A DNA stretch of 64,000 nucleotides from a virus: UHGV virus genome UHGV-0370399. One strand, written 5' to 3'. The notes beneath the pieces were generated by a model, which was given only the letters and a program-made list of their open reading frames with translations, had not been told where the DNA came from and did not search any database. Below are positions 11,749 to 12,521 of this stretch, one piece after another. The number at the start of each line of letters is the position of its first letter. Within the stretch, counting starts at the first letter, position 1. Both the position numbers and the translations under genes were made by a program.

Positions 11749-11820
11749 CAGAAGACCAATTACAGCAAACTTAATCTACTCATCTGACACGAAATCGGAC
11801 AAAGAAGATATTTGGTCTGG
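11749..11820 (+). ncRNA. Structured element A1 (CAGAAGACC ... GGTCTGG, closing stem AGACCA/TGGTCT); candidate small RNA
   Basis: One of four paralogous elements between tRNAs with conserved ends and covarying closing stem. Confidence 0.45.
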
Positions 11821-11831
11821 TCATTGAGAAT

Positions 11832-11908
11832 TGCGGGTATAGAGAAAGGGCGTCTCACATGTCTCATTAGCATGGTATCGGCAGGTTCGACTCCTGCACC
11901 CGCCTCCA
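11832..11908 (+). tRNA. tRNA-Met (anticodon CAU) with unpaired 1:72 position (initiator-like feature); CCA encoded
   Basis: Acceptor TGCGGGT/ACCCGCC (U1 x C72 mismatch), anticodon stem CATGT/GCATG with loop CTCATTA, T-arm GCAGG-TTCGACT-CCTGC. Confidence 0.6.
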
Positions 11909-11914
11909 ATTTTG

Positions 11915-11974
11915 CAGAAGACCGTATTCAGCAACAAAATACTTTTTGCGGATAAAAGAAAAAACACGGTCTGG
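11915..11974 (+). ncRNA. Structured element A2 (CAGAAGACC ... GGTCTGG, closing stem AGACCG/CGGTCT)
   Basis: Paralog of A1; closing-stem bases covary relative to A1. Confidence 0.45.
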
Positions 11975-11985
11975 CAATGTATTAA

Positions 11986-12062
11986 GGTTAGGAAGCACAT
12001 AAGGTATGTGCGGTCGCCTGTTAAGCGAATGGCACAGGGTTCGAATCCCTGACTAACCGCCA
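11986..12062 (+). tRNA. tRNA-Asn (anticodon GUU), CCA encoded
   Basis: Acceptor GGTTAGG/ACTAACC, anticodon loop CTGTTAA, T-arm CAGGG-TTCGAAT-CCCTG. Confidence 0.75.
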
Positions 12063-12071
12063 AATTTAAAT

Positions 12072-12159
12072 GTGTCGTTATCCCGTAGATGGTAGCGGTG
12101 GGGACTGTAAATCCCTTGTCATTGAGACTCGGTAGGTTCGACTCCTACACGGCACACCA
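12072..12159 (+). tRNA. tRNA-Tyr (anticodon GUA) with long variable arm, CCA encoded
   Basis: Acceptor GTGTCGT/ACGGCAC, anticodon stem GGGGA/TCCCT with loop CTGTAAA, 15-nt variable arm, T-arm GTAGG-TTCGACT-CCTAC. Confidence 0.7.
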
Positions 12160-12164
12160 ATAAA

Positions 12165-12242
12165 GGTTATGTAGTTTAATTTGGTTAAAATACTCCCCTG
12201 TCACGGGAGATGATGAGGGTTCAAATCCCTTCGTAACCGCCA
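12165..12242 (+). tRNA. tRNA-Asp (anticodon GUC), CCA encoded
   Basis: Acceptor GGTTATG/CGTAACC, anticodon stem CTCCC/GGGAG with loop CTGTCAC, T-loop TTCAAAT. Confidence 0.75.
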
Positions 12243-12303
12243 ATTTTGAGAGGGCTATTTAGCCCCTCCCTTAAAGGGTTCTTACGAGTATCCTTTAAAG
12301 GAG

Positions 12304-12376
12304 CAGAAGACCAAATACAGCAAGAACGTATGAAATTTCAAGCCAATTTAATTTTGAAAATTTAAACTTGGTCTGG
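12304..12376 (+). ncRNA. Structured element A3 (CAGAAGACC ... GGTCTGG, closing stem AGACCAA/TTGGTCT)
   Basis: Paralog of A1/A2 with covarying closing stem. Confidence 0.45.
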
Positions 12377-12389
12377 CTCAACAAATTTA

Positions 12390-12521
12390 CAGAAGACCGT
12401 TTACAGCAAAACTTAAACAATCTATTTCTCCGGTAAAGAAAAGGCGAAGGTTCGATTCCTTCACTCGGCAGATGTCGAGTTGGTGTAATGGTAGCACTTA
12501 AGATGATAAACAACGGTCTGG
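12390..12521 (+). ncRNA. Structured element A4 (closing stem AGACCGTT/AACGGTCT) enclosing a circularly permuted tRNA-like module; candidate Y-RNA-like (YrlA-like) RNA
   Basis: Inside the stem, in order: T-arm GAAGG-TTCGATT-CCTTC (12446-12462), acceptor-like hairpin ACTCGGC-AGAT-GTCGAGT (12463-12480), D-arm-like TGGTGTAATGGTAGCAC (12481-12497). Confidence 0.5.

Follow-up and report, generated by a model that had tools for sequence, protein, structure and literature searches.

Y RNAs are known to divide the labor between a handle and an effector part (PMC4201824, PMC12135203). In YrlA the segments follow one another in the order 5′ Ro motif, V, T, AS and D (Chen et al., 2014, PMC4201824), and in Thermus phage phiLo the protein phiRo60 binds two adjacent Y-like RNAs (Yrl1/Yrl2) and the host PNPase (PMC12135203). 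Here we describe four elements, A1 to A4, which are interleaved with tRNA genes beside a Ro60-like gene in a 64,000-nucleotide (nt) stretch of the virus genome UHGV-0370399 (hereafter the window). The window belongs to a Felixounavirus (Felix O1-type myovirus) genome: 304 phage records match it, and across positions 9900–13000 its identity to Escherichia phage vB_EcoM_ASO1A is 99.4%. A1 to A4 are probably phage Y-RNA-like noncoding RNAs and partners of the adjacent Ro60-like (DUF2828/vWA) protein; what the analysis shows directly is a covarying RNA structure, a protein with a Ro60 fold, and the association of the two in phage genomes. The elements are as follows.

11746–11823, plus strand: A1; outer helix 11746–11749/11820–11823, AGA 11750–11752, inner helix 11753–11759/11812–11818, CAGCAA 11763–11768, unpaired G 11819
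11912–11977, plus strand: A2; outer helix 11912–11915/11974–11977, AGA 11916–11918, inner helix 11919–11925/11966–11972, CAGCAA 11929–11934, G 11973
12301–12379, plus strand: A3; outer helix 12301–12304/12376–12379, AGA 12305–12307, inner helix 12308–12314/12368–12374, CAGCAA 12318–12323, G 12375
12387–12524, plus strand: A4; outer helix 12387–12390/12521–12524, AGA 12391–12393, inner helix 12394–12401/12512–12519, CAGCAA 12404–12409

A first-pass annotation of this DNA had described four elements that share a 5′ motif, a CAGCAA box and GGTCTGG ends, and all of these are located exactly in the window. The motif CAGAAGACC occurs at 11749, 11915, 12304 and 12390, with one further copy in the 64 kb, at 51107; CAGCAA follows each 5′ end (11763, 11929, 12318 and 12404), and GGTCTGG ends each element (11814, 11968, 12370 and 12515). 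The elements are thus real, but the ends quoted at first cut the structure: when each element is folded individually with four added bases per side, the four bases outside the quoted ends form an outer helix of 4 bp, which differs in each paralog and is always paired (UGAC/GUCA, UUGC/GCAA, GAGC/GCUC and UUAC/GUAA). An invariant asymmetric internal loop, in which a 5′ AGA faces a lone G of the 3′ strand, separates this helix from an inner helix of AGACC and two variable pairs, which is counted as 7 bp because the eighth inner pair is unsupported. Three bases later comes the single-stranded CAGCAA, which sits exactly 10 nt from the end of the inner helix. A fixed-geometry descriptor of this arrangement (10-nt spacing, at least 6 bp, a trailing G and exact CAGCAA) gave seven matches on both strands of the window, where 0.97 were expected, and four of the seven are A1 to A4.

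Covariation was scored on 19 distinct closing modules, namely those of the four paralogs, of their Felix-type orthologs and of three copies in Yersinia phage P778; extraction of the modules demanded only the first five, nearly invariant, inner pairs. Paired cells amount to 92.1%, both-sided changes occur in 9 of the 12 pairs, and the covariation score is 0.543, as against 0.200 in shuffles (none of 500 reaches the observed value) and no more than 0.18 when the partners are slid. Pairing reaches 97% in the outer helix, three of whose four pairs have both-sided changes, as when UUGC/GCAA of A2 becomes UUAC/GUAA in orthologs. The compensatory inner-helix changes reported by the first-pass annotation (AGACCA/TGGTCT, AGACCG/CGGTCT and so on) are real, and the alignment of paralogs with homologs, which it had proposed as a check, finds the helix maintained. 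Pairing is also kept by G-U pairs, as in AGACUG/CGGUCU (locus L013) and GAGC/GUUC (L012).

The orthologs come from 80 viral loci encoding relatives of the Ro60-like protein, which were fetched together with several annotated phages. All four elements are syntenic in loci L001–L008, L010, L011 and L014; the exceptions are L009, which has no detected A4, L012 and L013, which have no A1 under the strict pattern (a variant AGGCCA copy of A1 is present in L012), and L015, which ends after A1. Protein identity in these loci is 80–99%. The interior of A1 exists in two unrelated versions among closely related phages while its closing module is kept, which indicates that the closing module is the selected constant and the interior is exchangeable.

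In the fold of A4, which is the longest of the four, the interior contains the following segments.

12425–12441, plus strand: V-like hairpin (fold)
12446–12462, plus strand: canonical T arm, GAAGG-UUCGAUU-CCUUC (fold)
12463–12480, plus strand: acceptor-like stem closed by a tetraloop (fold and alignment fold)
12481–12482, plus strand: U8/G9 (fold)
12483–12497, plus strand: D arm with D-loop GG, GUGU-AAUGGUA-GCAC (fold)

The segments between the paired termini of A4 thus follow exactly the order of YrlA (V, T, acceptor-like stem, D), and as folded A4 mimics a permuted tRNA in the way that YrlA does. In orthologs, compensatory changes replace the acceptor-like stem wholesale (ACUCGGC/GUCGAGU, ACACG/CGUGU and ACCCUUC/GAAGGGU), three of its pairs differing in both partners; the T and D arms do not vary. 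The match of A4 to the Rfam tRNA model is partial, covering the V and T region at 22–23 bits, and A1 to A3 have no tRNA body.

The gene beside the elements is the following.

9999–11414, plus strand: Ro60-like protein gene, 471 aa; Pfam DUF2828 and DUF7788/vWA, with a weak VWA_2 match

As the first-pass annotation had supposed, this gene encodes a Ro60-like protein: all of the top 10 Foldseek matches of its product are Ro60, the second-best being the phiLo protein, and the product consists of a HEAT-like repeat ring and a vWA domain that are superposable on solved Ro60. The DxSxS signature of the metal-ion-dependent adhesion site (D279, S281 and S283) is invariant in 43 homologs. A homolog from a cluster-E mycobacteriophage, 34% identical and annotated as "Ro-like RNA binding protein", belongs to the same sequence family, and because this family reaches that protein, we take the modeled product to be a divergent Ro60 at the level of the fold, outside the TROVE sequence model; its Ro60 likeness is seen by fold comparison only. 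The DUF2828 family is known from plants. Upstream of the gene, at about 9929–9965, there is a promoter-like TTGACA-17-TAAAGT within an inverted repeat, GACAGACT...AGTCTGTC, which may be an operator.

Elements of the same design accompany relatives of this protein in distant phages. In the mycobacteriophage Snenia, three elements lie directly 3′ of gp54.

3′ of gp54: Snenia element 1, GGACACA-ga-CAGCAA...UGUGUCC-ag
3′ of gp54: Snenia element 2, GGACCCC-ca-CAGCAA...GGGGUCC-ag, with a complete T/acceptor/D body
3′ of gp54: Snenia element 3, GGACGG-taa-CAGCAA...CCGUCC-ag

Yersinia phage P778, whose protein is 53.5% identical, has three copies among tRNAs, which keep the outer helix and have an ANA/A loop and an inner helix GGAYNN. 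Three copies lie immediately 5′ of the gene for a "putative ribonucleoprotein" in Listeria Pecentumvirus and three immediately 3′ of the DUF2828 gene in Staphylococcus Sextaecvirus, and seven are interleaved with tRNAs in Bacillus phage vB_BcoS-136. In every phage checked by hand, the outermost helix pair is exactly 10 nt 5′ of CAGCAA, and the 3′ strand is followed by an unpaired G (A in P778).

The descriptor was then counted in 65 loci (762 kb in total) in which the DUF2828 protein is 39–47% identical. It matched 79 times on the strand of the gene and 7 times on the opposite strand, where shuffled sequences gave about 7 on each strand. Of the 79 gene-strand matches, 66 fall no more than 1 kb beyond the gene (29 on its upstream side, 37 on its downstream side), and at least one copy is present in 43 of the 65 loci. 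These RNAs are a widespread, previously unannotated, Y-RNA-like family that travels with a divergent phage Ro60. The long members often have a permuted tRNA body. In L064 (8192–8315) and L070 (8329–8428), the CAGCAA closing stem encloses an unpermuted tRNA body with D, anticodon-like and T arms, in which it replaces the acceptor stem; this design is a second way to graft a tRNA mimic onto the handle. In several phages, mini CAGCAA hairpins (34–58 nt over the whole list below, 36–42 nt in several of the phages) abut or overlap the ribosome-binding site or the start codon of the DUF2828 gene.

5964–6005: mini hairpin in L016/L017
2328–2364: mini hairpin in L019
5950–5986: mini hairpin in L024
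5907–5944: mini hairpin in L062
5903–5943: mini hairpin in L066
5881–5938: mini hairpin in L080
2890–2923: mini hairpin in L087 (phage GAP32), with the box CAACAA

The mini copies look like translational autoregulation, in which the protein would repress the mRNA that encodes it by binding a mimic of its RNA ligand. In the window, there is no mini copy at the start of the Ro60-like gene.

The first-pass annotation had held that the elements are neither protein-coding nor purely DNA-level repeats, and both statements agree with the present data. The open reading frames (ORFs) that overlap the elements are mechanical only (80 aa and 107 aa, minus strand), and ortholog interiors differ by indels of 1–3 nt, so that protein coding was rejected. 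An interpretation of the elements as repeats at the DNA level, be they miniature inverted-repeat mobile elements, recombination sites or homing-endonuclease targets, could draw on the terminal inverted repeats CAGAAGACC...GGTCTGG, which look like the ends of such mobile elements, on the exchange of interiors among related phages, and on an endonuclease gene in the tRNA region.

13855–14307, plus strand: HNH endonuclease ORF, 150 aa, inside the tRNA array

Homing endonucleases occur within other phage tRNA clusters, such as SegB in T4. We nevertheless give this interpretation hardly any credence. The G-U pairs by which pairing is preserved would be meaningless in DNA, and together with the strict strand bias they argue for selection at the RNA level and not at the DNA level, in keeping with the selected RNA secondary structure originally proposed. 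In addition, the asymmetric AGA/G loop and the one-sided CAGCAA are strand-specific (with a bias of 79:7 relative to the gene), the interiors form tRNA-like arms with covariation of their own, and the elements occupy syntenic positions in Felix-type genomes.

Within a few kb of the DUF2828 gene, L084 (a Listeria phage; 5700–7019) and GAP32 (1504–2769) encode an RtcB-like "tRNA splicing ligase" or an RNA ligase, which recalls the bacterial rsr-yrlBA-rtcBA RNA-repair operon. The elements might be stable small RNAs that are independent of the Ro60-like protein, for example decoys or inhibitors of host nucleases that target tRNA, or ligands of some other factor, for instance an RNA ligase, with the protein as a frequent neighbor in RNA repair. 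This alternative, which is unlikely, would suit the ligase genes near these loci and the tRNA mimicry of A4. It does not account for the association with the DUF2828 gene itself, which holds on the same strand, at a median distance of a few hundred nucleotides and on either side of the gene in phages that share little else, nor for the mini copies that overlap the translation start of that gene. Moreover, the known Ro60 homologs, one from a phage included, all bind adjacent stem-closed RNAs (PMC4201824, PMC12135203).

ARAGORN called 15 tRNA genes in the window, all on the plus strand between 11580 and 14631, and its calls bear out the interleaving of A1 to A4 with the tRNA genes of the array that had been noticed at first. 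At the Rfam gathering thresholds, tRNAs are the sole matches in the window. The elements start 4–5 nt past the CCA of an upstream tRNA and end 8–9 nt ahead of a downstream tRNA; A1 is flanked by tRNA-Glu (ending at 11741) and tRNA-Met (starting at 11832), and A2 by tRNA-Met (ending at 11908) and tRNA-Asn (starting at 11986). Ahead of the array there are two promoter-like sites.

11433–11461 and 11524–11553, plus strand: strong sigma-70-like promoter pair from a consensus scan, ahead of tRNA-Pro and the tRNA/noncoding RNA array; putative function

The first of these overlaps a hairpin (11425–11456) located 3′ of the Ro60-like gene. Terminators were rejected as an identity for the elements: their helices are not followed by T tracts, and the matches of the scan are tRNA T arms or the T arm of A4 on the wrong strand.

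The few nucleotides between the elements and their flanking tRNAs, and the copies among tRNAs in P778 and in the Bacillus phage, would also fit a role as punctuation in cis, in which structured spacers direct or insulate the processing of neighboring tRNAs by RNase P and RNase E and have neither a function of their own nor a link to the protein. Such a role is very unlikely, as in most phages the elements adjoin the DUF2828 gene and are far from any tRNA (examples are Snenia, the Listeria and Staphylococcus phages and many metagenomic loci), a single-stranded CAGCAA at a fixed distance and a tRNA-mimic interior would be superfluous in a spacer, and A3 and A4 adjoin each other and not tRNAs.

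With the elements taken as partners of the Ro60-like protein, the locus can be compared with YrlA. The Ro60-like gene ends at 11414 and A1 to A4 cover 11746–12524 on the same strand, which places them within the 4 kb and in the orientation expected of YrlA and, indeed, within about 1 kb of a gene with a Ro60 fold. As in YrlA, the 5′ and 3′ ends are paired and a conserved single-stranded box stands beside the 5′ strand; one copy per locus (A4) is tRNA-like, and the shorter companions that have no tRNA body resemble YrlB. Unlike YrlA, A1 to A4 have a partner from the DUF2828 branch, which is unrecognized by Pfam TROVE, and carry CAGCAA 10 nt from the helix end in place of GNCGAAN0-1G; the Felix/P778 group has the extra outer helix and AGA/G loop, and the window has four copies within a tRNA array. 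The motif GNCGAAN0-1G is absent from all window copies, which show (A/G)CAGAAGACC...CAGCAA instead. Elsewhere in the family, the YrlA model RF02553 scores 39.3 bits with the long Snenia copy (E 3e-7) and 38.2 bits with a long copy in L018 (E 8e-5), against a gathering threshold of 69 bits. Because both the GNCGAA motif and the Rfam model score failed, the window copies are not counted as YrlA members. Metazoan Y RNA (RF00019) gave no match at E≤10, and its bulged helix GGUCCGA/UUGACC is not shared. The phiLo system is likewise a phage Ro60 with adjacent stem-closed small RNAs; its RNAs, in contrast, were chosen by a CGAA motif and lie upstream of the gene, and its protein is a recognizable TROVE.

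The Y-RNA-like identity first suggested held in each part that the analysis covered, namely the selected RNA structure, the V-T-acceptor-D order of A4, and the occurrence of the same RNA design with the same protein family in very distant phages. What the first-pass annotation had missed are the outer helix, the wider family with its CAGCAA box, and a recognition motif that is not the canonical one. Several points weigh against the partnership that we favor. The search with Infernal and the Rfam Y_RNA and YrlA models that the first-pass annotation had proposed does not detect the window copies, even at E≤10 and even with A4 in isolation, and the CAGCAA box differs from the published Ro-binding motifs (GNCGAAN0-1G, GGUCCGA and CGAA). 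Pfam TROVE does not match the product of ORF 9999–11414, and searches of PDB sequences with phmmer, from the single sequence, and with a profile did not find Ro60 for it. Folded one sequence at a time, the short AT-rich copies do not stand out in energy (z −1 to −2.9). The descriptor with exact CAGCAA finds no element in 22 of the 65 distant DUF2828 loci, and it was refined on the same loci in which the 79 and 7 matches were counted, which leaves just two of its results independent of that refinement, strand bias and closeness to the gene. When the box was relaxed to NANCAA in these 22 loci, the matches were noise, save for the CAACAA mini hairpin at the start of the GAP32 gene, which is at most what GAP32 has. 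Finally, we found no expression, end-mapping or binding data for Felix-type phages in the literature examined.

Among Rfam families other than tRNA, only the Class I RNAs of Dictyostelia (RF01414) align end to end with the elements. These RNAs, which Kjellin et al. (2021, PMC7919456) report as confined to Dictyostelia, measure about 60 nt and have a terminal helix of 6–7 bp that is conserved in structure only, a variable interior, and an 11-nt motif, CCUUACAGCAA, beside the 5′ strand. They have the promoter element DUSE about 60 nt upstream, an invariant 5′ G and a 3′ CUGU, and their known direct binder is the RRM protein CIBP/Rnp1A (PMC7919456). Four pull-down partners include the functionally uncharacterized DDB_G0281243. 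The RF01414 consensus is GaUcuC-CUUACAGCAA...GagAuC-UG, and its scores, 24 bits for A2 (E 0.23), 12.8 for A4, and 22.1 and 18.8 for Staphylococcus phage copies, are all below the gathering threshold of 41.5 bits. The likeness consists of (CC)UUACAGCAA directly after the 5′ strand, of CAGCAA beginning 10 nt after the first base, and of an unpaired (U)G after the 3′ strand; in these alignments below threshold, the architecture and 8–10 bases of the 11-nt motif are shared (Staphylococcus phage copies have the 10-nt CUUACAGCAA, and A4 has 9 nt). The phage elements differ in that they have no DUSE, their first paired base is A, U or G, and their 3′ tail is a single G, whereas Class I RNAs are eukaryotic. 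In the literature examined, we found no link of Class I RNAs to Ro60, Y RNA or TROVE. It is possible, although rather doubtful, that the CAGCAA-box RNAs and Class I RNAs are one family with the DUF2828 branch of Ro60-like proteins as their common partner, in which case Class I RNAs would be Y-RNA analogues and their binder would be DDB_G0281243 or another DUF2828 protein of Dictyostelium.

For A1 to A4, transcription, processing, binding and an effector role are what we infer, in the following way. The array would be transcribed together with the tRNAs from the sigma-70-like promoters at 11433–11553. Because the elements lie a few nucleotides from mature tRNA ends, the RNase P and 3′-end machinery that matures the tRNAs would also release them: RNase P would cut where the next tRNA begins, and behind the preceding tRNA the work would fall to an endonuclease and 3′ exonucleases. 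Non-tRNA RNAs are also annotated in the tRNA cluster of phage T4, as rnaC and rnaD (species 1 and 2); these are stable RNAs freed by tRNA-processing enzymes and are a precedent for such processing. They have neither a CAGCAA box nor an equivalent closing module and were rejected as relatives. The two-part terminal helix would shield the ends of the released RNA, and the protein would recognize the constant module, namely the terminal helix and the single-stranded CAGCAA 10 nt from the helix end. The variable interior would be the effector module, which in A4 is a permuted tRNA mimic as in YrlA, with other modules carried by the three short copies. The A4 module could hold tRNA-binding enzymes or an exoribonuclease at the ring, or it could be a decoy for host nucleases that target tRNA. 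During infection, the particle probably serves RNA surveillance or repair, and counter-defense as well.

Further structured sequences lie in and around the array. Between A4 and tRNA-Lys, positions 12524–12665 form a long structured RNA with a closing stem of 23 bp and a branched interior, for which there is no Rfam match; the minimum free energy of 12524–12670 is −47 kcal/mol, versus −26 kcal/mol when shuffled (z −5.7). Within it lies a collapsed copy of the repeat, which may be a degenerate fifth element.

12624–12643, plus strand: collapsed repeat copy CAGACC-TTAAGCAA-GTCTGG (sequence), inside the long hairpin RNA 12524–12665

Two neighboring hairpins stand between tRNA-Asp and A3 (12243–12300, z −3.0), and a similar stretch is found ahead of the third element of P778. 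A tRNA-like sequence at 13402–13482, with an acceptor stem of 8 bp, a GCCA end and a 9-nt "anticodon" loop, CCUCCAAAA, is uncalled by ARAGORN, scores 21 bits with the Rfam tRNA-Sec model and has a homolog in Yersinia phage P778 (L081, about 9414–9497). The weak match to permuted transfer-messenger RNA at 12846–13030 (29 bits versus 47), which begins in tRNA-Ile and extends beyond a strong promoter-like site at 12920–12948, is probably driven by the T arm of the tRNA. The window was also searched, with filters off, with R1, a compact covariance model of 28 non-Felix closing modules. Its matches were weak and mostly spurious, A1 being found in part at 14.8 bits, and because R1 did not span the long interiors, it was dropped in favor of the fixed-geometry descriptor. 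A 35-nt hairpin with UACAGCAA at 49329–49363 (plus strand), which is remote from the locus and scores 16.5 bits (E 0.21) with R1, is probably a chance match. On the minus strand, 6786–7919 is an ORF of 377 aa with three tandem immunoglobulin-like repeats (QQPxxQTxxEG...GYQWKK...AGSYTCVV), as is typical of Hoc-like proteins that decorate capsids.

That Y RNAs may be among the "tRNA genes" of Felix O1-type phages had been a guess in the literature, which is turned here into four defined genes with a defined candidate recognition module. The Ro60-like particle of a phage becomes directly testable, and the Bas63 protein is reported to counter the ppl defense system. To our knowledge, no mechanism for Class I RNAs has become known since 2004; if their resemblance to the phage elements is homology, this long-standing orphan RNA class would gain a candidate mechanism. 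A large unannotated RNA family accompanies the DUF2828 branch of Ro60-like proteins in phages of Proteobacteria, Firmicutes and Actinobacteria. Its CAGCAA motif, which is distinct from the motifs of canonical Y RNAs, points to a second code of protein–RNA recognition in the Ro60 world, and current Rfam models miss the family. The variable interiors, with tRNA mimics in two permutations and other hairpins, constitute a natural series of putative effectors on one probable protein-binding handle.

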